From an uncultured virus (IMG/VR IMGVR_UViG_3300031247_000001) (lineage: Duplodnaviria > Heunggongvirae > Uroviricota > Caudoviricetes): a stretch of DNA of 64,000 nucleotides. The stretch lies in the IMG/VR virus record IMGVR_UViG_3300031247_000001; one strand, written 5' to 3'. The notes under the pieces are model-generated. The model saw only the letters and a list, made by a program, of their open reading frames with translations, was not told the origin of the DNA and did not search any database. Numbering within the stretch: the first letter of the stretch is position 1; each line of letters begins with the position of its first letter. A program made the translations under genes and the position numbers. Positions 6,794-59,521 of the stretch are shown in pieces.

Positions 6794-7326
6794 AGCTGTT
6801 CTTCCTTGAAAATGACGCCGCCAGTCAGCGCGACCGCGACCGCGAGCACGCTTTTCTTGTCCTCGGTGTCGAGCGGCTCAGAAATCGACCGGTTACAGAC
6901 TCGGAGCCAGCTCTCTCGGTGGGCGGGCTCGAGTATTTCCTGCATTCGTAGCTCATCCATCTCCACCGTCGGGATCTGAAAGCGGCGACCGAGGTGGGTG
7001 AGCATCAAGCTGACGGCCTTGACGTGTTCGGGGGGCTCTTTGGGGTTACAGGGCGGCCCAATGGCGAGCGCGGCCCACGGCTTCTTGGCGCGCCCGGAGG
7101 GGACCAAGATCCGCTCGAAGACGACCTCCAAAATCAGGTGGTGGACATACGCTTTTTTTGTGAGCTCGACTAGCCCCCTGAGGAATCCCGCCTCATCGTC
7201 GCGCCCGGGGAGCTTGGGACCGAGGAGCACGTCCTTATCGAGCACCATCGTCGGGGCGTCGCGCGAAAACTCCAGCACCGCGTAGGTGAGCGCCTTGAGA
7301 CCGGGAGCGACGCCAATGACGATCAT
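6790..7326 (-). CDS. RuvC/RNase H-fold resolvase-like protein, apparently catalytically degenerate
   Basis: MIVIGVAPG..TYAVLE resembles RuvC MIILGIDPG..GYGVI, and the C-terminal DKKSVLAVA resembles DAADALAIA. Confidence 0.55.
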   Translation of the reverse strand: MIVIGVAPGLKALTYAVLEFSRDAPTMVLDKDVLLGPKLPGRDDEAGFLRGLVELTKKAYVHHLILEVVFERILVPSGRAKKPWAALAIGPPCNPKEPPEHVKAVSLMLTHLGRRFQIPTVEMDELRMQEILEPAHRESWLRVCNRSISEPLDTEDKKSVLAVAVALTGGVIFKEEQL

Positions 7327-9579: not shown

Positions 9580-10007
9580 GACTGCACTCGGAGCCCGATC
9601 ACTCGGGGCACGGGAAAGGCGTCGCCTGCTGCTCCAGCGCCCACGAGCCCAACTCCAGCAGGGGTCACGCCTTGGGCTTTCAGGAAGTCTGTCAGCGCCA
9701 GGAAGGCCGTCTTGAAGTCCGCGAAGGCCGCGTCGTACTGGCCTTGGTCGATCTGCTTCAGATCGCTCACTGCGCGCTCGCCGTTTACTAGGTACACGTT
9801 TGCGGTCGTCAGCAGCCGGGAGTACTCGGCGCGCACTTCGGGCGTGACGGGGTGCGTCGCCTGGTAGGCGCTGAAGACCTCGTCGATGCCGCTCAGCACG
9901 AGCGAGGTGTCGGTCAGCGCCGACTGGATGGCGGGGAGCGCATTGGCGAGGGCGGTGCAGCCAGTGAGGGAGGCCAGAGCGAGGAGGAGGACGAGGAATC
10001 TTTTCAT
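9576..10007 (-). CDS. Lipoprotein
   Basis: MKRFLVLLLALASLTGC lipobox. Confidence 0.75.
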   Translation of the reverse strand: MKRFLVLLLALASLTGCTALANALPAIQSALTDTSLVLSGIDEVFSAYQATHPVTPEVRAEYSRLLTTANVYLVNGERAVSDLKQIDQGQYDAAFADFKTAFLALTDFLKAQGVTPAGVGLVGAGAAGDAFPVPRVIGLRVQS

Positions 10008-10016
10008 GGTGAGAAG

Positions 10017-10052
10017 ATCCTAAGCTGCCTCCCATGATGCCCGCAAGTTTTT
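10017..10052 (-). promoter_or_regulatory. Conserved promoter AAAAAC-TTGCGG-N18-TAGGAT
   Basis: Recurrent motif upstream of the lipoprotein/peptidase operon. Confidence 0.6.
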
Positions 10053-28869: not shown

Positions 28870-29313
28870 ATGAGTGCCCCCGATCCGCTCCCGCATTCTC
28901 TCCCGAAGGGCATGACTGCCCGGGGGAAGACGTGGCAGCTAGAGTCGCTCGCAGCGCGGCACTCATCGAGCGAGGAATACTACGGCCGATGGGTGGCCAA
29001 TTGGTCGGCTGGGGAGAAGTTTCCTTGCGTGGCGTCTATGCATGCAAGCGATATTGATTGGCCCGGGGAAGATCTCGCCGCGGCCGCCGTAGCACCAAGC
29101 ATGGAAGAATCACTCGAATCACTGCGGGTAGCCATCGCAGGGCTCAAGGGCTGGCCGCTCGACAAGCGGGAGACGCTCGTGGCGTTCAATATGATGGGGC
29201 TCACGAGCCGGCTGCAGCCGCTGCAGGTCGAGAGCTCCGTGCATCAGCAGATGGTCGTGGCGCTGGCGGTGAAGCTCGCGGACTTGGCGATCTTGGAGCT
29301 CGGTAAACCGTGA
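28870..29313 (+). CDS. Hypothetical protein, first gene of the rightward block
   Basis: Downstream of a TTGACA...TAGCTT promoter-like sequence at about 28823-28851. Confidence 0.5.
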   Translation: MSAPDPLPHSLPKGMTARGKTWQLESLAARHSSSEEYYGRWVANWSAGEKFPCVASMHASDIDWPGEDLAAAAVAPSMEESLESLRVAIAGLKGWPLDKRETLVAFNMMGLTSRLQPLQVESSVHQQMVVALAVKLADLAILELGKP

Positions 29314-34208: not shown

Positions 34209-35048
34209 ATGGCTGAAGTTGTATTGATGGACGGGCAGTGGACGATGTGCCAGTTCCTGCGGCCGTTCGAGAATTTCGAGCGCGTCTATCAAGGCCAATC
34301 GGGAACGCTTCCGATCGCCTTCCCGGGCGACCTCGATCAGTTCGCGGTCGACGGCACGCCTGGGTACGACCCGAACCTCATCGCGGGCATCACGGTCCCC
34401 TACGGCTCTCGCGTGACGATTTGGATCCCGCAGACCATCGCCGACTACACCGTCAACGCGCTCTATCAGTACCAGATCCTCTGGCGCATGCGGAACGTGC
34501 GGGACTATCGCGAGGGGCAGACCAAGGGCGCGGTCTCCGCTTTGCAGAACTACACGGGCTACCACCTGACCACGAGCGGCTTTGGTCAACCCGAAGTGGC
34601 CAGCGCCCCCGTCACTTCCTCGAACGCTCGCTACTTCCTGCCGGGCGCGACGCGCACGGTGGCCTTCGAGCAGAGTGAGCCCGCGCTCGGCGATCCCGGG
34701 GTCATTCATCTCACCGGCGAACGCCTGCAGCCCACGATCAATCCGGTCTGGGTGCAGCCGCTCACTCCCAAGGGTAACCCCGCCGTCTGGCAGCAGGGCA
34801 CTTATGTGGGCTCCTCTCACGCGAACAACGGAGGCCCCTCGTGGCTCACGTTTACGTGCGACGCCGATGGCGACGAGATGAGCATCTTGGCCTACAAGAT
34901 CCCGCCCGGTGAAGGCCCCTACCCCGCCTGGGACTTCACGACATCCGATCCCGGAGATCTGAGCTTCTCCAACACCTTCGGCAACAGCAATGGCCAAAAC
35001 CGCGGCACCCCCTTCACTTCGATCTTGGTGACCACCGGCACTTCGTAG
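34209..35048 (+). CDS. Putative beta-rich virion structural protein
   Basis: AAGGA RBS; T/G/P/aromatic-rich; no recognisable family. Confidence 0.6.
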   Translation: MAEVVLMDGQWTMCQFLRPFENFERVYQGQSGTLPIAFPGDLDQFAVDGTPGYDPNLIAGITVPYGSRVTIWIPQTIADYTVNALYQYQILWRMRNVRDYREGQTKGAVSALQNYTGYHLTTSGFGQPEVASAPVTSSNARYFLPGATRTVAFEQSEPALGDPGVIHLTGERLQPTINPVWVQPLTPKGNPAVWQQGTYVGSSHANNGGPSWLTFTCDADGDEMSILAYKIPPGEGPYPAWDFTTSDPGDLSFSNTFGNSNGQNRGTPFTSILVTTGTS

Positions 35049-35150
35049 TGGCAGCTCGGCGCCGACGGAAGCCGAGACTTTGCCGTCCAGAGCGCGGGCC
35101 GTGATCGATGGCACATGCAAAGGGAGCTCGGCCCCTACGGAAGCTGGGAC
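35043..35150. CRISPR. CRISPR-like mini-array: 2 repeats and one 36-nt spacer
   Basis: Repeats at 35043-35078 (left end degenerate) and 35115-35150 match the consensus GTGCAAAGGGAGCTCGGCCCCTACGGAAGCCGAGAC; spacer 35079-35114. Confidence 0.75.
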
Positions 35151-35171
35151 GACGACAGCAAGACATCGAAG

Positions 35172-35978
35172 ATGCTCCTCGATCCTTACCCCGGGCCTCG
35201 CGCTCCACAGATCAACACACTCTGGGTCGTGGTGCCGTTTTCTCGCCCGCACTACTTCGACAATGTGTGGCGAAACTTCGAGCGCCAACGCTTTCCAGGT
35301 AAGCGCCTCTTGATTGCTGCCAACGGCCTTGGGAGCGGCGCAGAGTCGATGTGGCGAGATCTCGGCGCCGACTTCATCGCCACCCGCGATCACCAATCCA
35401 CCGCCAAGAACGAAGCCCTCGCGTTCATTCGGAAGCACGGCGGCGGCTGCTTCTCGATCATGGACGACGACGACTGGTACGGCCCCGGCTACCTCGACGA
35501 GGTCGCGGGCTATGCCAAAGACTACGAGGCGCTCGGCAAGCAATGGCACTTCGTGTCGCTCGGTGAGGGGGATCCGGGTGAGGTGACGTTCGTGTGCGCC
35601 AATCGCCGCTACGCTAACCTCGATCCCGCCTCGTGGTTTACCGGCGGCACGATCAGCGGCTGGGCGGAGACGGCCAAGGACTTCCCCGTCGTCGCCGAGG
35701 GCGAAGACATTCAGTGGTGCCACGCGATGAAGCGCCAGGGCGCTCGCCTGCGCGGGCTGTCGATCTACCACTACCTCTACCGGCGCTCGTATGGAGGTGC
35801 CAAGCACGCGTGGCGCATCACCCGACAAGCATTTGAGCGAGCGCTCCGGGTCGGAGACGCGCTCGAGTTCCCGCTGACGGGGATGGGTCAGATCGATCTC
35901 GACATCGTGACGGGTGAAAAAAATCCGACCGAGTGTCGCCTGATCGGACAGCAGAAGTTCGTGGCGGTTCCGGCGTAA
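35172..35978 (+). CDS. Glycosyltransferase family 2-like (GT-A) protein
   Basis: VVVPFSRP, AKNEAL, IMDDDDWYGPGYL and GED. The ORF-track start at 35115 lies inside the repeat. Confidence 0.75.
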   Translation: MLLDPYPGPRAPQINTLWVVVPFSRPHYFDNVWRNFERQRFPGKRLLIAANGLGSGAESMWRDLGADFIATRDHQSTAKNEALAFIRKHGGGCFSIMDDDDWYGPGYLDEVAGYAKDYEALGKQWHFVSLGEGDPGEVTFVCANRRYANLDPASWFTGGTISGWAETAKDFPVVAEGEDIQWCHAMKRQGARLRGLSIYHYLYRRSYGGAKHAWRITRQAFERALRVGDALEFPLTGMGQIDLDIVTGEKNPTECRLIGQQKFVAVPA

Positions 35979-37901: not shown

Positions 37902-37963
37902 TGTCCTAAGTTGAAAGCCGGCAGAGATCTTCCTTTCCCTAGTTTTCAAACTAGGACACTACC
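37897..37963. mobile_element. 67-bp MITE-like element
   Basis: Inverted repeats GGTAGTGTCCTAAGTTGAAA and TTTCAAACTAGGACACTACC, flanked by CACAACCT at 37889-37896 and 37964-37971. Confidence 0.75.
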
Positions 37964-38029
37964 CACAACCTGGTAGTGTCCTAAGTTGAAATAGTTGGCA
38001 GGGAAGGTTTCGGCGAGATCCTCCCGTGG

Positions 38030-38406: not shown

Positions 38407-38489
38407 TCGGGGGACCCCCGGTCCTACGCGGGCGGGCGCGGAGACCTTCCCTGCCGCAGGTTTCAAACTAGGACACTACCCACAACCTG

Positions 38490-38525: not shown

Positions 38526-38594
38526 TTCCCGACTGGGTCAGTTTGTCAGGATGACCGAGGCAGGCAGCGCTATGCCCTCGGGATCCCGACAACC

Positions 38595-40787
38595 ATGACG
38601 AATCGAGCCAGACTCGGCGCTTCGGCGCGTGGCACACCCCGAGTCCCCCCTCTTACTGGTGGCGGATCGCAGGGCGCTCAAGGCGCGCCGGGCGCGCAGG
38701 GGTTTCAGGGCGCGCAGGGTTTCCAGGGCTCGGGCGGCGGCGCGCAGGGCGCGCAGGGAGCCCAGGGATTCCAGGGCGCGCAGGGGTTTCAGGGGTCGGG
38801 CGGCGGCGCGCAAGGTGCGCAGGGAGCCCAAGGCTTCCAGGGCGCCCAGGGCTTTCAGGGTAGCGGCTTCCAAGGTGCGCAGGGCGCGCAGGGCTTCCAA
38901 GGTGCGCGAGGAGCTCAGGGTTTCCAGGGCGCTATCGGACCGCAGGGCTTCCAGGGGCCGCAGGGAGCCCAAGGCTTCCAGGGGTCGCAGGGAGCCCAAG
39001 GCTTCCAGGGCGCGCAGGGCTTTCAGGGCGCTATCGGACCGCAGGGCTTCCAGGGTTTCCAGGGGGCGCAGGGCTTTCAGGGCGGCGGCTTCCAGGGCGC
39101 TCAAGGCGCGACGGGAGCGACGGGCACGCAGGGATTTCAAGGCGCAAACGGAGCTCAAGGCGCTCAGGGGTTCCAAGGATCGCAGGGTTTCCAGGGTCAG
39201 GCTGGCCCCGGCGGCGGCGCGCAGGGCGCTCAGGGTTTCCAGGGATCGCAGGGCGCGCAAGGCTTTCAGGGTGGCGGCTTTCAGGGCGCCCAAGGCGCGC
39301 AGGGCTTCCAAGGCGCGACGGGCGCGCAGGGCTTCCAAGGCGGCGGTTTCCAAGGTGCGCAAGGCGCGCAGGGTTTCCAGGGTCAGGCTGGCCCGCAGGG
39401 GTCGACCGGGCCGCAGGGCTTTCAGGGCTTCCAGGGCGCGCAAGGCTTTCAGGGTGGCGGCTTCCAGGGGGCGCAGGGCGCGACCGGCTCCCAAGGCTTT
39501 CAAGGTAGCGGTTTCCAAGGCGCGCAGGGCGCTACCGGGGTGCAAGGCTTTCAAGGCGCCCAGGGTTTTCAGGGTGCGACCGGGCCGCAGGGCTTCCAGG
39601 GATTTCAGGGAGCGCAGGGCTTTCAAGGTGGTGGGTTCCAGGGCGCGCAAGGCGCGACCGGCGTCCAAGGCTTTCAAGGCGCGCAGGGTTTCCAGGGTGC
39701 GACCGGGCCGCAGGGTTTCCAGGGATTTCAGGGAGCGCAGGGCTTTCAAGGTAGCGGTTTCCAAGGCGCGCAGGGCGCGACCGGGGTGCAAGGCTTTCAA
39801 GGCGCGCAGGGTTTCCAGGGTGCGACCGGGCCGCAGGGTTTCCAGGGTGCGCAGGGTTTTCAGGGTGGGGGGTTCCAGGGGGCGCAGGGCTCGACCGGCG
39901 CGCAGGGTTTTCAGGGAGCGCAAGGCTTCCAAGGCGGCGGCTTCCAAGGTGCGCAAGGCGCGACCGGGGTGCAAGGCTTTCAAGGCGCCCAGGGCTTTCA
40001 GGGTGCGACGGGCGCGCAGGGTTTCCAGGGATTCCAGGGCGCGCAAGGCTTTCAAGGCGGCGGCTTCCAGGGCGCGACGGGTACGCAAGGGTTCCAGGGG
40101 GCGCAAGGCTTTCAGGGCGGCGGGTTCCAGGGAGCGCAAGGCGCGACCGGGGTGCAAGGCTTCCAAGGCGCCCAGGGCTTTCAGGGTGCGACCGGGCCGC
40201 AGGGCTTCCAGGGATTCCAGGGGGCGCAGGGGTTTCAGGGCGGCGGCTTCCAGGGCGCTCAAGGCGCGACCGGCGTCCAGGGTTTTCAAGGAGCGCAGGG
40301 TTTTCAAGGAGCCCAGGGATCTCAAGGGTTTCAGGGATCGGGAGGCGGCGCGCAGGGCGCTCAAGGCGCGCAGGGCGCTCAAGGATTTCAGGGGTCGGGC
40401 GGCGGCGCGCAAGGCGCTCAAGGCGCCCAGGGGTTTCAGGGCGCGCAGGGTTTCCAAGGCGCGGGCGCGCAGGGCGCTCAAGGTGCCCAAGGCGGCGGCA
40501 GTGGGACGGGGCTCACCATCGTCGCGCGCGGGACAGTCACCGTCAACGGCTTCGGCGCCGCCTCTCTTGGTCCCTACACGAACGCCGCCGGTCTTGCGGT
40601 GACGCTCTTCCTCACGGTGGTGCCGACAGGCAACGGCGATGACTCGTCCTGGGGCGTGAGCTCGACGGGCGCCGCGATCAGCTGGAAGTTTCACGACTCG
40701 GGTTTCAGCGGCACGCAATACGGATTTACGATCACCAACAACAACGGCACCAACCGCACGATGTTCTACGCGGTTGTTGGGGTGTGA
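38595..40787 (+). CDS. Collagen-like fibre protein (about 610 aa of Gly-X-Gln repeats plus a small C-terminal beta domain)
   Basis: [12 protein letters not shown] triplets with GG interruptions. Confidence 0.9.
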
Positions 40788-42508: not shown

Positions 42509-42585
42509 CTTAGACCATCGCGCGTGAGTTCTTCTACGCCCGATTCCGTCGTCGCCTTCCTCTCCGCTGATTTCAGACCAGGGCA

Positions 42586-42958
42586 CCACCCCTCACCCCA
42601 AAAACTTGAGCCGCACCCGAAAGGCAGGGTAGTCTCGGCTCCGCTAGGTCGGTTTGGGCTCGAGCTGCTGCCCGCAGACCAACGGAACGATCGAGCGGCG
42701 CGCAGATTTGCGTTTTCCCTCGGAGTGTCCCCTGCCTATGGGCCAAAGTAGCGTTGCTAGCCGAAATATCGGGGCGGTCGCCACTCTTGTGGGGGACTCA
42801 AGTTCCCTCGAAAACGTCGGCACCCAAACGCTCGCAGATGGCTGCCTCTGCTACGTGCAGTCTGAGCTCAAGCACTACGAGCTCCACAAAGGCGCGACCG
42901 CCCCTTCCGATCCGCCCTTCGTCATCGTGCCGTCTGGCGGCATCGGTCGCTGGGTGCC
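42586..42958 (+). repeat. Duplicated promoter + leader + N-terminal anchor module, copy 1
   Basis: High identity to 44258-44629; includes AAAAAC-TTGAGC-N18-TAGTCT. Confidence 0.85.
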
Positions 42959-44257: not shown

Positions 44258-44629
44258 CCACCCCTCGCCCCAAAAACTTGAGCCGCACCCGAAAGGCAGG
44301 GTAGTCTCGCCCCACTAGGTCGGTTTGGGCTCGGGCTGCTGCCCGCAGGCAAACGGGACGATCGAGCGGCGCGCAGATTTGCGCTTTCCCTCGGAGCGTC
44401 CCTTGACCATGGACACCAGCAGCGTTGCCAGCCGAAATATCGGGGCAGTAGCCACCCTCCTCGGTGCGCCCAATTCCCTCGAAAACGTCGGCACGCAAAC
44501 CCTCGACGACGGTTGCTGGGCTTACGTGCAGTCCGAGCTCAAGCACTACGAGCTCCACAAAGAATCGACTGCCCCGTCCAATCCTCCCTTCGTCATCGTG
44601 CCGATCTGCGGCGTCGGTCGCTGGGTGCC
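44258..44629 (+). repeat. Duplicated promoter + leader + N-terminal anchor module, copy 2
   Basis: High identity to 42586-42958. Confidence 0.85.
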
Positions 44630-47600
44630 TGGCGGTGGCGGCGCGCAGGGCGTGCAAGGGGCTCAGGGTCCGCAGGGCGCGCAGGGTTTTCAAGGTGGCG
44701 GCTTCCAAGGCGCGCAAGGCGCAGTCGGCACGCAGGGCTCACAAGGTGCGCAGGGCGCACAGGGGCGCCAAGGCTTCCAGGGGAACGGCACGCAAGGCGC
44801 GCAGGGATCTCCGGGCGCGCAAGGCCCGAGCGGCGGCGCGCAGGGCGCTCAAGGCGCGAGCGGCGTGCAGGGTTTCCAGGGCGCGCAGGGGTTTCAGGGC
44901 GGCGGCTTCCAAGGTGCGCAGGGCCAGACCGGCGCTCAAGGCGCTGGCGGCGGCGCGCAGGGCGCTCAAGGCGCGAGCGGCGTGCAAGGTTTCCAGGGCG
45001 CGCAAGGCTTTCAGGGTGGCGGCTTCCAGGGCGCGCAAGGCAATCCCGGCGCGCAAGGAGCGACGGGCACGACCGGCGCGCAGGGCAGCCAAGGGGCGGC
45101 GGGCACGACCGGCGCGCAGGGTAACACCGGCGCGCAGGGATCCCAGGGCAATCAAGGCGCGAGCGGCGTGCAAGGTTTCCAGGGAGCGCAAGGCAACCAA
45201 GGGACGCAAGGCGCGGGCTTCCAGGGCGCGCAGGGCTTTCAGGGCGCGCTCGGTGTCACCGGCGCGCAGGGTTTTCAGGGCTTCCAGGGCGGCGGCTTTC
45301 AGGGCGCGCAGGGATCTTCGGGCGCGCAGGGTCCAGGCGGCGGCGCGCAGGGCGCTCAAGGTGCGCAAGGCACGCAGGGCGCTCAGGGCACGCAGGGCGC
45401 GGGCTTCCAGGGCGCTCAAGGCTCGACCGGCACGCAGGGTGGCACCGGCGTGCAGGGTTTCCAGGGCGCTCAAGGCTTTCAAGGCGGCGGCTTCCAAGGC
45501 GCGCAGGGCGGCACGGGCCCGCAGGGTCCCGGCGGCGGCGCGCAAGGCGCGCAGGGCGCAGCCGGCACGCAAGGCTTTCAAGGCGCGACGGGTGTGCAAG
45601 GCTTCCAGGGAGCGCAGGGCTTCCAGGGAGCGCTCGGTGTCACGGGCGCGCAGGGCTTCCAGGGGTCGCAGGGCTTCCAGGGTGGCGGCTTCCAAGGCGC
45701 ACAGGGATCGTCCGGCGCGCAAGGTCCCGGCGGCGGCGCGCAGGGCGCTCAGGGCGCATCCGGCACGCAAGGCTTCCAGGGAGCGCAAGGTTTTCAGGGC
45801 GGCGGGTTTCAGGGCGCGCAAGGTCAGACCGGCGCGCAGGGCGCGGGTGGCGGCGCGCAAGGCGCGCAGGGCGCTCAGGGTAGCGGCGGCCAGCTCAATC
45901 CCGCCAACGTCGCGGCGCTCCAAGCGATCAACGCGACCTCGCTCCCGTCGGGCACGCTCGCCGACACGGGCGTCGTCGGCGATCTCTATCGCCTGAACAA
46001 ATCCCCGACCGCCGGTGAGACCGCAGGCATCGACGCCACCAACGTCGTTGCCGTGACGACGCCAGCGGGCAGCGTCTTCGAGCGGCTCGGTCTCGCGAAC
46101 AAGTCGTTTGCGTTCGTGGGCGCATGGTTTATCGACGGCACGGCTGGCAACGACACGAACGATGGTCTCACGAGCGGCACGGCGCTCAAAACGCCGAGCG
46201 AGCTCGCTCAACGCCTGAGCCCCGGTGGACAGCTCTGCAGGATCCAGCAGTCAGTCACCGTCCAGATCGCTAACGTCCCCGCGGGCGAGATCAACCTCAA
46301 CCTGGACGCGCCGCCAGGATCTGGGTTTGCCTTCACGATCCAGGGTGATTTTACGAGCAGCGCGCCCATCACGCTCGCCACCGTCGTCGATACGGTCGCC
46401 TCCGCATCCCCCGTGCGAGGTCGGCTTACCACCGCGAGCGGGACGTTCGTGGACAAGGCCCGCATTCGATCGACCAGTGGCGCGGCGGTTGGAGCGATTA
46501 CTTATTCCACGGGGCTCAACTCCACGACGGATACGTGGGTTAAGGCCTGGCAACTCGGCCTGGCCAACGCGCAAACGAACATCGCTCCGGGCACCACTTG
46601 TGTCGTGGACACGCTGGTATCCACGCTCACGATTGCCAGGATCAAGCTCGGTCGCAATATCGCTCTCCGCGTCAACGACTTGAAGCTCCCGAACGGGATC
46701 GAGGTTGACAACTTCGACAGCGGTAGCGCCTCCGATTTGATACAGCAGTGCGAGCTCGGATCGGCCAGCACGACGTGTCGGCTCTTGGGCAATGTGCAGT
46801 TCATCAACTGCAACGGGGTCAACGCTCTAAACACTGGCGTCACCAACACGCCGCAGCCGATCTTCCGAGGCTGCGTGCTCGGCGGTACGTTCTTTTCGGG
46901 CGCAGGCGCGGCGGCCGCTTGCCCGAGCATGCAGGGCGGAACCAATTGCTTCAACGGAGGCGCGCTCTTTCTGGGCGGCAATACGGCGACCGCCATGGCG
47001 AGCCATGGACTCGATACTGCCGTCGAGTGGGTCAATGGCGTCGCGGCGGTCGCGATCACGGTGAAGAAGGGCGCCATCCTCGGGATCCGAGGACAGCAAT
47101 TCGGGTTTGGAGGGACTTACTCGATCGGCATCCAAATGGAGAGCGGCAGCACTGCCGTAACGGACTCAGCGTCGCTCGTTGCCATCCCCGCAACGCAGCA
47201 GCTGTCGATGACGGGGCACAATCTCAACTACTCGGACATCCCCGCCAATACGTTTTTCCCACGAGCCGCGTGCGTGTTCGCGATCAACCCCGATCCGGGC
47301 GCGACGAGCGGATCGCAAGGGTTTCAGGGCGCGCAAGGCGTGCAAGGTGCGCAGGGTTTCCAGGGCTCAGGCGGCGGAGCTCAGGGCGCACAAGGCGCTC
47401 CCGGCGTCGCTGGATCGCAAGGCTTCCAGGGCGCGACGGGCGCAAGCGGCGGCGCGGGCTTCCAGGGCGCGCAAGGCGCCTCCGGGCCGCAGGGCTTCCA
47501 GGGCGGCCTCGGTCAGGGCGGCGCGCAGGGATCGCAGGGTCGTCAAGGCGCGACCGGCACCGCGGGCGCCGCGGGCACGCAAGGCTTCCAGGGCGCGCAG

Positions 47601-49730
47601 GGCGGCGGCTTCCAAGGCGCCCAGGGCGCGCAGGGTCAGACGGGTCCGGGCGGCGGCTCGCAAGGCGCGCAGGGCGCGACGGGCGTGCAGGGCTTCCAGG
47701 GCGCGCAGGGCTTCCAGGGTGGCGGCTTCCAGGGCGCCACCGGATCGCAGGGCGCGACCGGCACGCAAGGCTTCCAGGGCGCGCAGGGTTTCCAAGGTGG
47801 CGGGTTTCAAGGCGCGCAGGGTGCAACCGGCGTGCAGGGCTTCCAAGGCGCGCAGGGTTTTCAAGGCGGCGGCTTCCAAGGGGCCACCGGATCGCAGGGC
47901 GCGACCGGCACGCAGGGCGGCCAGGGCGCGCAAGGCGCGACCGGCGCTGGCACGCAGGGCGCGCAAGGCGCGACCGGTACGCAAGGCTTTCAAGGCGCGC
48001 AGGGCTTTCAAGGCGGCGGCTTCCAAGGCGCCACCGGATCGCAAGGCGCGACGGGCACGCAGGGATCGCAAGGCGCGCCCGGATCGGGATCGCAAGGCGC
48101 GCAGGGCGCAGCGGGCACGCAGGGCTTCCAGGGCGCGCAAGGTCGACAGGGGAGCACCGGCACGGCAGGCACCGCTGGCGCTCAAGGCGCGCAGGGTAAC
48201 ACGGGCGCGACCGGCACGACGGGCGCGCAGGGCGCCTCTGGCCCGGCGGGCGTGCAAGGCTTTCAAGGTGGCGTCGGCCCCGGCGGCGCGCAGGGATCGC
48301 AGGGTCGCCAAGGCGCAACCGGCGTGCAAGGCGCGGTCGGCCCGCAGGGATTCCAAGGCGCGACGGGCGCCGGCACGCAGGGCGCGCAGGGTCGCCAAGG
48401 CTTCCAGGGCGCCGCGGGCGTGCAGGGCGCCCAGGGCTCGTCGGTGGCGCCGCTCACGCAGGTCTTCTACGTCGACTCCAAGAATACGGGCGCCGCGAAC
48501 GGCTCCATCCAGGCGCCCTTCGCGTCGATGACGGCGGCGCTCGCTGTGGTGCCTCTCAATGTGCCGACGACGTTCTTGGTGACGCCGCACACGTACGCCG
48601 AGACGATCACGATTACTAACGCGCAGGCGGACATCACCATCGTTGGGCTCGGGCCGCCGACGGATCAGTCGGTGATCTTCACCGGCGCGTGCCATGCGTC
48701 GTTCTTGTCGTCGGACTCGACGCTCACGCTCCAAAACATCCTGGTTGAGGGCGCGCTCACCGAGACTTCTGCTTCCGATCTCGGCACGACCTTCGCGCTC
48801 GTCGACACGCACATCGGCGGCAACGTCACCGGCACCGGCTCGAACGTCGGCAGCACCAAGCTTCGGATGGGCTCGGCCCTCCCGTACGAAAGCGGCAGCG
48901 GCACCGGCGTAGTGATCGACGGCGACCTCACGACCTTCGAGCAGGTGCTCGCAGAGAACGCCAGCATCGCGAATTTCGCCGGCCCAACCGCCGACAATCA
49001 GCAGTTCGCGAACCGCTTTACCAACTGCTACTTCGGCTCCGCAAACCTCGGGGGCCCATCGATCTGCGAGGGCTGCGTCTTCCCAAGTGGACTGGCCTCA
49101 GCGGCGTCCTCGACCACCGCGAGCTACCTCACGGACTGCGTCATCGACGGCGACATGCTGTCATCGACGGGCCACTCGCTTTATGTAAACGGGGGCCTCA
49201 TCGGAGCGGGCGCCCCCATCCCGCCCCTCGCGCTCAATTGGCACGGGATCGTCAATTTCCGAAACACCCTCTTCGGTCCGTTTTCTAGCGGTCACGTCGC
49301 AATCACGGCGCCGCTCACGACCCTCCAGCTCGACAGCGCGAGTGAGCGAAGTCTCTTTTCGACGACCGGAGGCAAGGCGACGCTCTCGGCGGATTCGGTC
49401 GGGATCTACGCGCTCGATCAGGGAGAGTCGGATGCGGTGCAACTCGCGGACTCGTCCTCGGGATACGGCGTCGCTGGGATCGGTCGGCTGTTTCTGCCGT
49501 CGACCAAGCTCACGGCCGACCGCACGATTCAGTTGGCGGCGGGCGGCGGGTCTGGGCTCGATATGCTGCCGCTCGATGTCTACGGCACCAACGGTCACAC
49601 GCTGACGGTGCAGTTCAATTCGGTGACCATCAAAACGATCGTTAGCTCGCACGTGCCCGCTCGGTACTTCTTCCAAGTATCAGAAGACAACACGGTCGTG
49701 GTTTACATCGGAGTGGAGAGCTTCCAATGA
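44409..49730 (+). CDS. Giant collagen-like fibre with two globular (beta-helix-like) modules
   Basis: Two Gly-X-Gln tracts; [14 protein letters not shown] and FYVDS...GSIQAPF motifs. Confidence 0.88.
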
Positions 49731-57097: not shown

Positions 57098-58462
57098 TCA
57101 CCATGGCCGCTCCTTCAGCTGCGGGAACATCGCCATCGCCCGCAATCGATCGACCTCCCCGAGCTCTACCTGCCGCTCCTCGGCGGTGCGGTTTGATGCC
57201 CAGCTAGCTTGCAGGTTGTAGACGCTCAAGATCTGATAGATGCACGTGTAGCGCGCGCCCGCCATCTCGAGCAGCGGCCACATGACGGCCTTGTCGATGG
57301 CGAGCGAGACCCAAGAGCCGTCGGGACGAAATAGGCAAGAAGGCGCGACGCCCGGACCGTTCGCGAGCTTCTTTGCTAGACCCGCCCGGAACGTCTTCAG
57401 GTGGGTCGCTCGCCAGTCCGAGTACCGCACGCGTGCGCCGAGCGCATAGGGAGCCGCAAACCCGACCTCCCCATCGGAAAACATGAATTGTCCGTAGGTG
57501 AGCCAAGGCTCGGCCTTCGCGGCATAGGCGAGCGCCAAGACCTCGAGCGCGCGATCGTGCGCTAGCCAGTCGTCGCCATCGAGCCAGACGATGACTTCGT
57601 CGTCGGGGAGATCTTTCCAAACCGACCAGCAGTTTTCGAGCGCGGAGAGGCGCTCGGGGTTTCGGATCACGGTGAGCTGCTGATCCGTTTCCATATTGAA
57701 GAGCGCGATCTCGCTCGTGCGGTCCTCGCTCTTGGCGTCGATGACGACGTGGGTGTAGTTCCGGAAAGTTTGATCGAGCACGCTGTCGAGGCACTTCTGG
57801 ATCCAGCGCTCGGCGTTGAGCGCGGTCGACACGATCGTCATGTGCAGGGGCTTACCGCTCTTCACGAGCACGCAGAAATTGTGGCGCCCCATCCAGTGCT
57901 GGGCCTGGTGCACCTCCATGAGTGAGCGGAGCTGCGCCGTGCGCGCCTCGTCCAGCGTCCATCCATGAATGCGAAAGCGCGTGAGCCAGTACTCGGGCGG
58001 CTGCAAGTTGATGTGGCCCTCCCATTCCTGACCGGGCGCTGCCGCCGACCACACGATCACGTCCGTCGCGTGCACTGCGACATTTTCGACGATGGCGAGC
58101 GAATGCTGCTCGGAGATGTGCTCGGCCGTCTCGGTGCAGATCACGCAGGAATACTTGGCAACGGCGCCAGCCCCTTGCAGGGTTTGGGTCAAGTCAAACC
58201 GTTGCACCTCGACCCCCGGCTCGATCATCTCGATCGCGTGCGGCGAGTACTCCGCCCCGATCGTGCCCTCCCACCCGAGCTCGATCAGGCGAGCGGTCTG
58301 TAGGCCGATACCGCACCCGATGTCGAGGCAGCTCGGTTGCTGCCCGACTACCGCGTGGATGCAATCGGCGAGCTTTCGGTAGTTGTCGCGGCACTCGCGC
58401 ATTTGCTCGAAAAATGCCTGGTCATGCGGGTCTCGATTGGCTTGATTTTCAGTGTTTCCCAT
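57098..58462 (-). CDS. SAM-methyltransferase fused to GT2 glycosyltransferase
   Basis: LDIGCGIG, ETAEHI and GHINLQ; then NAERWIQKCLDSVLDQT and WLDGDDWL. Confidence 0.85.
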   Translation of the reverse strand: MGNTENQANRDPHDQAFFEQMRECRDNYRKLADCIHAVVGQQPSCLDIGCGIGLQTARLIELGWEGTIGAEYSPHAIEMIEPGVEVQRFDLTQTLQGAGAVAKYSCVICTETAEHISEQHSLAIVENVAVHATDVIVWSAAAPGQEWEGHINLQPPEYWLTRFRIHGWTLDEARTAQLRSLMEVHQAQHWMGRHNFCVLVKSGKPLHMTIVSTALNAERWIQKCLDSVLDQTFRNYTHVVIDAKSEDRTSEIALFNMETDQQLTVIRNPERLSALENCWSVWKDLPDDEVIVWLDGDDWLAHDRALEVLALAYAAKAEPWLTYGQFMFSDGEVGFAAPYALGARVRYSDWRATHLKTFRAGLAKKLANGPGVAPSCLFRPDGSWVSLAIDKAVMWPLLEMAGARYTCIYQILSVYNLQASWASNRTAEERQVELGEVDRLRAMAMFPQLKERPW

Positions 58463-58536
58463 TGCGTGAGACAGTAGCGTGCTATCTTCGGGAAGGAAAG
58501 CCGAAAGCCCGCAGTAGCACGGGGGAGGAGATCGCC

Positions 58537-59295
58537 ATGAAGAGTTTGTTTTTGGTTTGCCTCATCGTCGCCATGACTGCCTGCGGCGCGCCGTTCACGG
58601 CGGAGTCGTTTACCGATAGCGGGAGCGCCGGTGCCATCGGGGCTCCGGCGGCACCGAGCGCAGGCGCGGCCGGCGCCGAGCCGCGCGAGGATGCCGGCGG
58701 AGCGACGAGCATCCCGCTCGAGTCAGCTGGCGCCGCCGGCGCCGCCGGCGCGCCTGACCTAGGCTCCGCCGGCGCGCCGAGCGTCGACCCGCCGCCGCTC
58801 TACACGCCGCCCCCGTGCTCCACCGACCAGAACGTCACCGGCGGCTACGACGGATCGCTCAGCGCCGCCCCTGCCTGCCTCCGCACCAAGGAGGCCCTCA
58901 ACACCGTTGCTTGTGCCAACTGGGACGGGCGATCGATCACCGTCAACGGCGCCGCGGCGACCTGCGGCGTCCCGCTCTCCTTCCCGGAGAGCGTCGATGG
59001 CTTCACGTACATCGATCTCGGCCCGGGGACGAGCTCTGGCGTCGCGCTCCGGTGGTTTTTGACAGCGCCCGCCCCAAACCCCTGCGACGCGCGTTGGTGG
59101 ACCCAGGGCGACCTCTACGCCCCGAACGAAATCATGCTCGATGTCTGCGACGCGCCCGGGAGCGAAAAGAGCTGCGAGCTCGGCAAGACCTACGCCTTCT
59201 CGTGCCTCGACACCCCGACCAGCCGGTGCACCAGCACGGGGCCCGGCGCAAGCGGCTGGACTTCGAGCTGGGCGCTGGTTACCCTCTGCAAGTAA
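58537..59295 (+). CDS. Cys-rich lipoprotein
   Basis: GGAGG RBS; lipobox MTAC; Gly/Ala linker; Cys-rich domains. Confidence 0.75.
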   Translation: MKSLFLVCLIVAMTACGAPFTAESFTDSGSAGAIGAPAAPSAGAAGAEPREDAGGATSIPLESAGAAGAAGAPDLGSAGAPSVDPPPLYTPPPCSTDQNVTGGYDGSLSAAPACLRTKEALNTVACANWDGRSITVNGAAATCGVPLSFPESVDGFTYIDLGPGTSSGVALRWFLTAPAPNPCDARWWTQGDLYAPNEIMLDVCDAPGSEKSCELGKTYAFSCLDTPTSRCTSTGPGASGWTSSWALVTLCK

Positions 59296-59521
59296 AGGCA
59301 GCGCGACGCCTACGGAAGTCGCGACCACGCGGTGCTGGGGCAAAGGGAGCTCGGCCCCTACGGAAGCCGAGACAAGCCATGACCGAGAAACGACCGCCAG
59401 GGTTTAGACAAGTGCAAAGGGAGCTCGGCCCCTACGGAAGCCGAGACAAATCCTGCCGGGCGGCTACCTGGCCTATCTCGACACGGTGCAAAGGGAGCTC
59501 GGCCCCTACGGAAGCCGAGAC
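59290..59521. CRISPR. CRISPR-like mini-array: 4 repeats with spacers of 12, 38 and 38 nt
   Basis: Repeats at 59290-59325 (diverged), 59338-59373, 59412-59447 and 59486-59521; the last two are identical, GTGCAAAGGGAGCTCGGCCCCTACGGAAGCCGAGAC. Confidence 0.88.

Follow-up and report, generated by a model that had tools for sequence, protein, structure and literature searches.

The window examined here is a stretch of 64,000 nucleotides (nt) from an uncultured virus of the Caudoviricetes (IMG/VR record IMGVR_UViG_3300031247_000001), and at positions 35043–35150 it carries a genuine CRISPR cassette, in which two direct repeats of 36 nt, R1a and R1b, enclose a single unique spacer of the same length, S1. 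A first-pass annotation, made from the letters of the window, had described a repeat/36-nt spacer/repeat unit at this place, and both its coordinates and its spacer letters were confirmed. The cassette lies on the same strand as the two genes that flank it, and the parts of the locus are arranged as follows:

34209–35048, plus strand: upstream open reading frame (ORF) of 279 amino acids (aa), with its TAG stop codon (35046–35048) inside R1a
35043–35078, plus strand: repeat R1a, 36 nt, TCGTAGTGGCAGCTCGGCGCCGACGGAAGCCGAGAC, folding into a hairpin; covariance-model score 50.8 bits
35079–35114, plus strand: spacer S1, 36 nt, unique
35115–35150, plus strand: repeat R1b, 36 nt, of the main-array type, 3′ end GCTGGGAC, also folding; covariance-model score 49.0 bits
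35172–35978, plus strand: glycosyltransferase-like gene GT1, with its probable true start at ATG 35172, 21 nt past R1b

The cassette and its flanking genes

The two repeats belong to different types. R1a is of the type found in the array of a related phage genome, G001, to whose consensus repeat its scaffold (repeat positions 8–36) is identical at 29/29 positions, and its first 7 nt are the gene end and stop codon instead of repeat letters. R1b is of the type shared by the window and a second relative, G002, with two stem pairs changed (U-A to U-G and G-C to G-U); these are the two G-U conversions that had been noticed in the right repeat, and the same 6-bp hairpin still forms, at −7.9 kcal/mol compared with −11.0 kcal/mol for the main-array repeat. 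A consensus scan detected neither a sigma-70 promoter nor an intrinsic terminator between the upstream stop codon and R1a, other promoter types lying outside its scope.

The flanking genes had been named a structural gene and a glycosyltransferase gene. The former label is unsupported by any family match, as the 279-aa upstream protein had none in Pfam, PHROG or PDB; the protein is conserved at 60–76% in four phage contigs, and its structure model was unusable (mean predicted local distance difference test score, pLDDT, of 30.6). The latter label could not be confirmed for GT1 itself, which reached only E=0.075 against Pfam GT2, and several of its homologues carry PF00535 or PF13641. The proposed location within a late operon is plausible from nearby coat and tail-fibre matches.

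The sequence of R1b could also be read as protein, since the open frame is continuous from ATG 35115, the first base of the repeat, into GT1, which would make the repeat the N-terminal 19 residues of that protein (putative peptide MQRELGPYGSWDDDSK). The third codon position of these 19 codons is rich in guanine and cytosine (GC) in a gene-like manner (16/19, counted by eye). However, a conserved N-terminal extension of this kind, which the first-pass annotation had named as the outcome that would speak against a repeat, was present in 0/15 aligned GT1 homologues, all of which start within 4 residues of Met-20 (ATG 35172). All 65 non-self GT1 matches are 224–279 aa in length and cover at most 94% of the 287-aa query, the G001 start that aligns to 35172 overlaps the stop of a small preceding ORF, and each of the repeats in the non-coding array at 59338–59521 would yield this "peptide" as well. 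A coding role for R1b is thus highly improbable, and, judged from the homologues, the ATG at its start creates a spurious 19-codon extension of the GT1 ORF.

The repeat family and its scaffold

A repeat search of the window identified six copies in one family (D13). A degenerate pattern of the repeat core had 5 matches in the window and 0 in 100 shuffles, and a covariance model recovered exactly six units with scores of 48.2–56.4 bits, the next best match reaching 12.5 bits. The 29 distinct units on which the model was trained came from the window, whose own six units were included, and from five other records covering G001, G002 and the loci L024 and L022. Four of the six lie in a second array with the same repeat, which had been reported to lie about 24 kb away and does so at a distance of 24.2 kb:

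59290–59325, plus strand: R2a, first unit of the second array, 48.2 bits, overlapping the TAA of the ORF at 58414–59295
59326–59337, plus strand: short spacer of 12 nt between R2a and R2b
59338–59373, 59412–59447 and 59486–59521, plus strand: three identical canonical repeats, with two 38-nt spacers between them (S2b and S2c)

Two features held to be common to both arrays proved correct. Both stop codons (TAG 35046–35048 and TAA 59293–59295) fall within the first unit of their respective arrays, and both first units contain GGCAGC.CG.CGCC, a variant that is no more than the form the repeat takes in G001. In R2a the stem has become CGCGAC/GTCGCG through compensatory substitutions. The orthologue of R2a in G002 (L046 10300–10350) has the stem CATGGT/ACCATG, four compensatory pair changes away from that of the window, and a 15-nt spacer at the homologous place in G002 is the counterpart of the 12-nt spacer of the window. 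Judging by these letters, R2a looks like a conserved specialised element heading the array and not mere decay. The second array also lies at a synteny break, with the DNA downstream matching the left end of G001 (window from 59551 onward, G001 from 391 onward) and the DNA upstream corresponding to G001 at about 42.7 kb; the G002 contig ends inside its second array and starts inside the array next to its Cas12m gene (cas12m).

Within the 36 nt of the repeat, C(−24)..C(−19) are paired with G(−8)..G(−3), and the last two letters are A(−2) and C(−1). According to the available text on the Cas12m2 structure, C(−22)..C(−17) of its CRISPR RNA (crRNA) pair with G(−8)..G(−3), G(−23) touches A(−2), nucleotides −36..−30 are disordered, and the guide-target duplex measures 17 bp (PMC10442227). 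The architecture of the repeat is that of a type V-M (Cas12m) crRNA scaffold. The absence of the first 7 nt of the repeat from R1a, R2a and the first of three units upstream of the G001 cas12m fits the dispensable −36..−30 segment of Cas12m2 exactly.

The stem is supported by covariation. Across the 29 distinct units, standard pairs occupy 96.6% of 174 cells, and two rows misaligned by a 1-nt insertion are the source of most exceptions; stem registers slid from this position have at most 40.8% of cells paired. Four of the six pairs show compensatory double changes, with a covariation score reached by 0/500 shuffles. No Rfam family reached its gathering score anywhere in the window, a search of 34900–35300 at E up to 1 was also empty, and no tRNAs were found in the window.

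A compact Cas12m in a family of large phages

The window has a GC content of 64% and is phage-like in its gene content, encoding DnaB, a DnaA C-terminal domain, a pol III beta clamp, ThyX, two sigma factors, a minor coat protein, tail-fibre matches and giant collagen-repeat proteins. A scan of IMG/VR with the repeat core returned one contig, G001, a genome of 135,429 bp with direct terminal repeats that is rated complete and syntenic with the window at 65–80% nucleotide identity; the contig of the window itself was not among the IMG/VR and JGI metagenome contigs that the repeat pattern matched. Its array comprises 23 repeats, and the 488-aa ORF immediately upstream (P0001) matches the CRISPR-associated DNA-binding protein Cas12m in PDB (23vw_A) at E=3.8e-36. 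G002 (110,728 bp, 82% complete) is collinear with the window, positions 172–59294 of which correspond to G002 42057–110268, and it likewise has a Cas12m homologue followed by an array of the same repeat. No adaptation genes were found among 13 ORFs around the G001 locus.

A further homologue, P0016 (517 aa), is 70% identical to P0001 and matches 23vw_A at E=1.4e-37. Because P0016 and the GT1 protein of the window (P0089) are both recorded on contigs of 126,165 bp, the phage from which the window derives probably encodes cas12m outside the window. Contigs of 136,303, 127,411 and 131,781 bp also occur in both the GT1 and the Cas12m match lists, which suggests that the pair of GT1 and Cas12m is typical of the phage family. 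P0016 was absent from the matches in 401 sampled genomes of the phylum of genome G005 and in two Ideonella genomes, a result that is uninformative on absence.

Among 36 aligned members of the family, each of the 23 compact proteins (444–520 aa) carries Asn at RuvC-I, in the motif NFGWR, with the Glu and Asp retained. This compact set consists of P0001, P0013, P0016 and 20 relatives (alignment A3), and the triad Asn-Glu-Asp (N-E-D) is present in 23/23, whereas the 13 longer relatives have Asp (8), Asn (3) or His (2) at RuvC-I. Cas12m variants with D-E-D, H-D-D and N-D-D triads are described, in the available text of PMC11013384, as cleavage-deficient DNA binders that depend on a protospacer-adjacent motif (PAM). 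The same text gives T- or C-rich PAMs, states that no trans-activating crRNA (tracrRNA) is needed and that precursor crRNA is processed within the repeat independently of RuvC, and reports that a construct of two repeats and one spacer is sufficient for crRNA production with Cas12m (PMC11013384). Given its N-E-D triad, the compact Cas12m would be expected to bind DNA without cutting it.

An unusual arrangement was observed upstream of cas12m in G001 (L012 18947–19123, minus strand; G001 28946–29122), where three repeat-like units lie between a 280-aa gene and cas12m. The first overlaps the TGA of the 280-aa gene, and the second arose as, or at least reads as, an exact tandem duplicate of 51 nt. 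In the third, whose end lies 29 nt short of the cas12m ATG, the stem is compensatory (CTCGGA/TCCGAG). These leader units may serve autoregulation of cas12m. No repeat-like units were found upstream of cas12m in G002.

The system can be compared with several that are already known. Type V-M CRISPR-Cas12m systems were reportedly the subject of work by Wu in 2022. With MmCas12m2 and GoCas12m the phage system shares a repeat whose 5′ end is dispensable, a single crRNA, a lack of adaptation genes nearby and an effector with a non-canonical RuvC and homology to a Cas12m of solved structure (E=1e-36 to 1e-37), as well as the 36-nt repeat, 6-bp helix, 3′ arm at −8..−3 and A(−2) that are given in the available account of type V-M (Omura 2023, PMC10442227). 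In contrast, the phage effector has 444–520 aa compared with 572–662 aa in the longer relatives and 596 aa in MmCas12m, and its N-E-D triad lies outside the D-E-D, H-D-D and N-D-D variants in the available description (Bigelyte 2024, PMC11013384). The phage system is also carried by large lytic-looking phages and not by bacterial chromosomes or plasmids, and its arrays are dispersed, with the first unit fused to the stop codon of a gene.

A phage-encoded Cas12m is also described for the temperate myxophage MV-1, where it stands beside one 8-spacer array for which no protospacers were found (10.64898/2026.09.14.751636). Both cases combine a phage Cas12m with an adjoining array and lack cas1, cas2 and cas4; compared by description only, they differ in that MvCas12m has 610 aa and a D-E-D triad, belongs to a temperate phage, and comes with no dispersed mini-arrays in the text available (10.64898/2026.09.14.751636). 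The cassette itself resembles virus-borne mini-arrays in having 1–2 spacers between repeats on a viral genome, away from a cas operon. Such mini-CRISPR arrays are said, after work by Medvedeva and by Faure in 2019, to depend on host Cas proteins and to have spacers with matches in viruses that are closely related. In the present case the effector comes from the lineage itself, and S1 had no match in G001 or G002 or at the L027 and L029 loci, so that targeting of these relatives was not observed. In the parts of the Cas12m and phage mini-array literature that were searched, we came across neither a clade of compact N-E-D Cas12m proteins from large phages nor arrays in which a gene's stop codon is fused to the first unit.

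A probable phage guide and its alternatives

Taken together, the locus is probably a minimal array of a type V-M-like system that is carried by a soil phage family of about 110–136 kb itself, and the cassette is, as far as sequence comparison can tell, most likely one of the phage's own guide RNAs. Dispersed single-guide cassettes were one of two possibilities put forward by the first-pass annotation, and this half of the proposal fits, with a minimal unit that belongs to the same family as the other array and is co-oriented with its flanking genes; the other half, repeat-mimic RNAs, is not supported. Since no recognisable promoter of its own was detected and R1a starts inside the upstream stop codon, the cassette is likely to be read within the messenger RNA (mRNA) that runs from the 279-aa gene into GT1. 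The compact Cas12m would recognise the hairpin scaffold (−29 to −1) of both repeats within this message and cut upstream of each, and the expected product is one crRNA consisting of the R1a scaffold and about the first 17–20 nt of S1. This crRNA would guide Cas12m to a PAM-flanked DNA target, for instance in a competing phage, in a different mobile element or in a gene of the host, where binding would lead to transcriptional silencing and not to cutting. R1b would close the unit; as a Cas12m-binding hairpin 21 nt before the GT1 start codon, it could have an additional effect on the GT1 mRNA.

Several observations weigh against this reading. tblastn detected no cas12m within the 64-kb window, and the link between the gene and the window's own contig is solely the matching figure of 126,165 bp. 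R1a and R1b differ at 5/29 scaffold positions, folding energy gave no support (z=+1.72 for a 171-nt region and −1.08 to +0.77 for single units), and the cassette is not conserved among the relatives compared, so that decay is conceivable here too. In addition, the search for protospacers of S1, which had been proposed as a check, yielded nothing: there was no real match in PLSDB plasmids or GenBank phages, no exact 20-mer in IMG/VR (0 matches), and, with up to 4 of 17 nt allowed to mismatch, nothing in the window, G001 or G002. The best ungapped identity of S1 in these three phage sequences was 22–24/36, compared with 21–24 for shuffled spacers.

Other searches for targets gave similar results. 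Whole cassettes had only weak matches in PLSDB and GenBank phages (E at least 0.08), and no S1 site with a TTN PAM and up to 3 mismatches in 17 nt was found in the window (half of the phage's own genome), G001 or G002; the best case in the PAM-aware search for self-targets had 3 mismatches in 17 nt. No target emerged for the second array's spacers either: S2b and S2c had 0 exact 20-mers in IMG/VR and no match in PLSDB, GenBank phages or the relatives. Two candidates were rejected. An 11-nt match of the 12-nt spacer at window 7273–7283 was judged to be due to chance, as it lies inside a gene and has no TTN PAM, and S1 is not a recoded copy of an adjacent gene, given that six-frame peptide and ungapped nucleotide comparisons did not exceed shuffled controls.

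A target was observed elsewhere in the family. A spacer of the main array of G002 (L041 166–203, minus strand) matches the cas12m of G002 itself (1850–1887) at 36/38 positions beside a TTC motif, and the segment that it matches is the most conserved N-terminal part of cas12m (…EIERWRIAARD…). The same spacer matches the G001 cas12m at 27/28 positions over its PAM-distal part. A spacer that matches the cas12m of the family makes inter-viral conflict plausible for the system as a whole.

The main rival explanation, which we consider unlikely, is that the locus is a decaying relic or recombination scar, in which repeats were left behind by recombination between arrays or cassettes and no useful guide is encoded. 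The absence of a target for S1 would agree with such an origin, and so would the state of the junction. The comparison with related viruses that the first-pass annotation had called for revealed variation in which genes and repeats occur at this place. In G002, a truncated repeat lies directly at the TAA of the 279-aa homologue, with the 5′ arm and loop kept and the 3′ arm lost (covariance-model score 21.9 bits), and GT1 is absent; in G001, there is no repeat, and a small Cys-rich ORF is followed by GT1; and at the L027 and L029 loci of two more distant contigs, a terminator-like hairpin and a different gene are found, again with no repeat. Intact in the window, truncated in G002 and absent in G001, the cassette is by this comparison accessory and its junction variable. 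The chimeric look of the cassette, with an R1a of the G001 type joined to an R1b of the window/G002 type, also favours recombination. So does a diverged strain present in two of three DNA runs, which has 369 other letters in place of 34916–35408 (491 nt).

On the other hand, both units retain a complete scaffold and hairpin, both changes in R1b preserve pairing by wobble, and true decay at the junction looks different in G002, where the 3′ arm is lost. R1a also agrees at 29/29 scaffold positions with a functional-looking array repeat from a genome whose genes are about 70% identical; set against the genes that flank the cassette (67–72% identical between the window and G001), this agreement points to constraint or recent exchange at the sequence level. 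As a separate observation, in one of the DNA runs (X1), the bin at 35092–35175, which holds R1b, had a summed contig depth of ~140x compared with ~17x in its neighbours, and an X1 contig departs from the window immediately past the repeat, where another spacer follows. By these two results, the same sample holds another, more abundant array with this repeat.

The repeats might instead work in cis, punctuating or regulating the RNA. Binding and cutting by Cas12m would then separate the upstream and GT1 messages and may occlude the ribosome-binding region of GT1, and the spacer would be irrelevant. Such a role would be consistent with the overlap or abutment of first units with the upstream stop codon at four loci (window 35046, window 59293, upstream of cas12m in G001 and the G002 remnant), with the three repeat-like units that fill the space between stop and cas12m in G001 and end 29 nt before the ATG, and with the R2a hairpin, which is kept between the window and G002 by the four compensatory pair changes despite a non-canonical stem sequence. 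The processing of precursor crRNA inside the repeat, as reported for Cas12m, would provide the means (available text of PMC11013384). However, no such units were found upstream of the G002 cas12m and none at the GT1 junction of G001, so any cis role would be dispensable. As a complete explanation it is quite improbable, and it is compatible with the guide reading instead of excluding it.

The second possibility raised by the first-pass annotation was that the repeats are decoys of the RNA anti-CRISPR (Racr) kind, which would sequester the Cas12m of the host or of a rival phage. Racrs are described, in the text available, as repeat units that stand alone, imitate the repeats of the host and have no association with cas genes (Camara-Wilpert 2023, PMC10651486). 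The cassette resembles them as a CRISPR repeat on a phage genome outside a canonical cas-adjacent array, and the identity of the R1a scaffold to the repeat of another phage's array (G001) would suit a decoy. A truly solitary unit of the family also occurs in a distant 86,658-bp contig (L022) and in two short contigs (L020 and L021). Nevertheless, the unit in the window is not solitary, as its second repeat lies 72 nt from the first, and SRUFinder, which is stated to drop candidates with another full or partial repeat within 100 bp, would count it as an array or mini-array (PMC10651486). The repeat core was found in no CRISPR array among one genome per species from 185,579 bacterial and archaeal species, so that no mimicked host repeat was identified, in what is an indirect test given that the host was not identified. 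Relatives in the lineage carry the cognate cas12m, as the window's own phage probably does, and the sigma-70 consensus scan revealed no promoter belonging to the unit. For these reasons the decoy proposal was not upheld and is very unlikely.

Two matches of the repeat core in Ideonella were rejected as chance, each being single and outside any array, and neighbours of the DnaB protein in an atlas were a mixture of Viruses and Pseudomonadota, from which no host was inferred. In L022, the solitary unit (9990–10025) lies in an intergenic gap between minus-strand genes, on the strand opposite to them; by its setting it would be a better candidate for a Racr or solitary repeat unit (SRU) than the cassette of the window. 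Regulatory crRNA-like RNAs (CreA, crlRNA, tracr-L) have a degenerate repeat and a guide partly complementary to a promoter of their own genome, and no such complementarity was found in the window (half of the own genome), G001 or G002.

With regard to what a phage guide might accomplish, a far-reaching version of this reading can be sketched, and it is speculative and, taken whole, doubtful. A nuclease-dead, very small Cas12m would act as the phage's programmable repressor, with guides written into late polycistronic messages whose first repeat is fused to a stop codon. The guides would be made only when these operons are on and would silence, for example, host genes or the cas12m of a rival phage; the repeats would double as mRNA punctuation cut by Cas12m.

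Because Cas12m binds without cutting, a phage that possesses it together with several small arrays would be equipped with a programmable means of silencing genes. Should the cassettes embedded in operons be expressed, they would provide a natural case of a virus timing its guide-RNA output by its own expression programme, and they would also offer a very compact effector (444–520 aa, N-E-D) and a 29-nt scaffold for CRISPR interference (CRISPRi) or base-editing tools. Dispersed phage repeats are also not automatically anti-CRISPR decoys; here, they appear to be part of the lineage's own system.

Other repeats in the window are distinct from this family. A 52-nt direct repeat ending …TTTCAAACTAGGACACTACCCACAACCTG (family D16) occurs at 37921–37972, 38438–38489 and 42548–42599, near collagen-like and tail-fibre genes, and might serve as a promoter or leader of the phage. 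Most prominent in the window's repeat content are very large ORFs with Gly-X-Y collagen repeats at 38538–40718 and 44325–49730, the latter encoding 1,801 aa and matching Pfam Collagen at E=1.5e-50.

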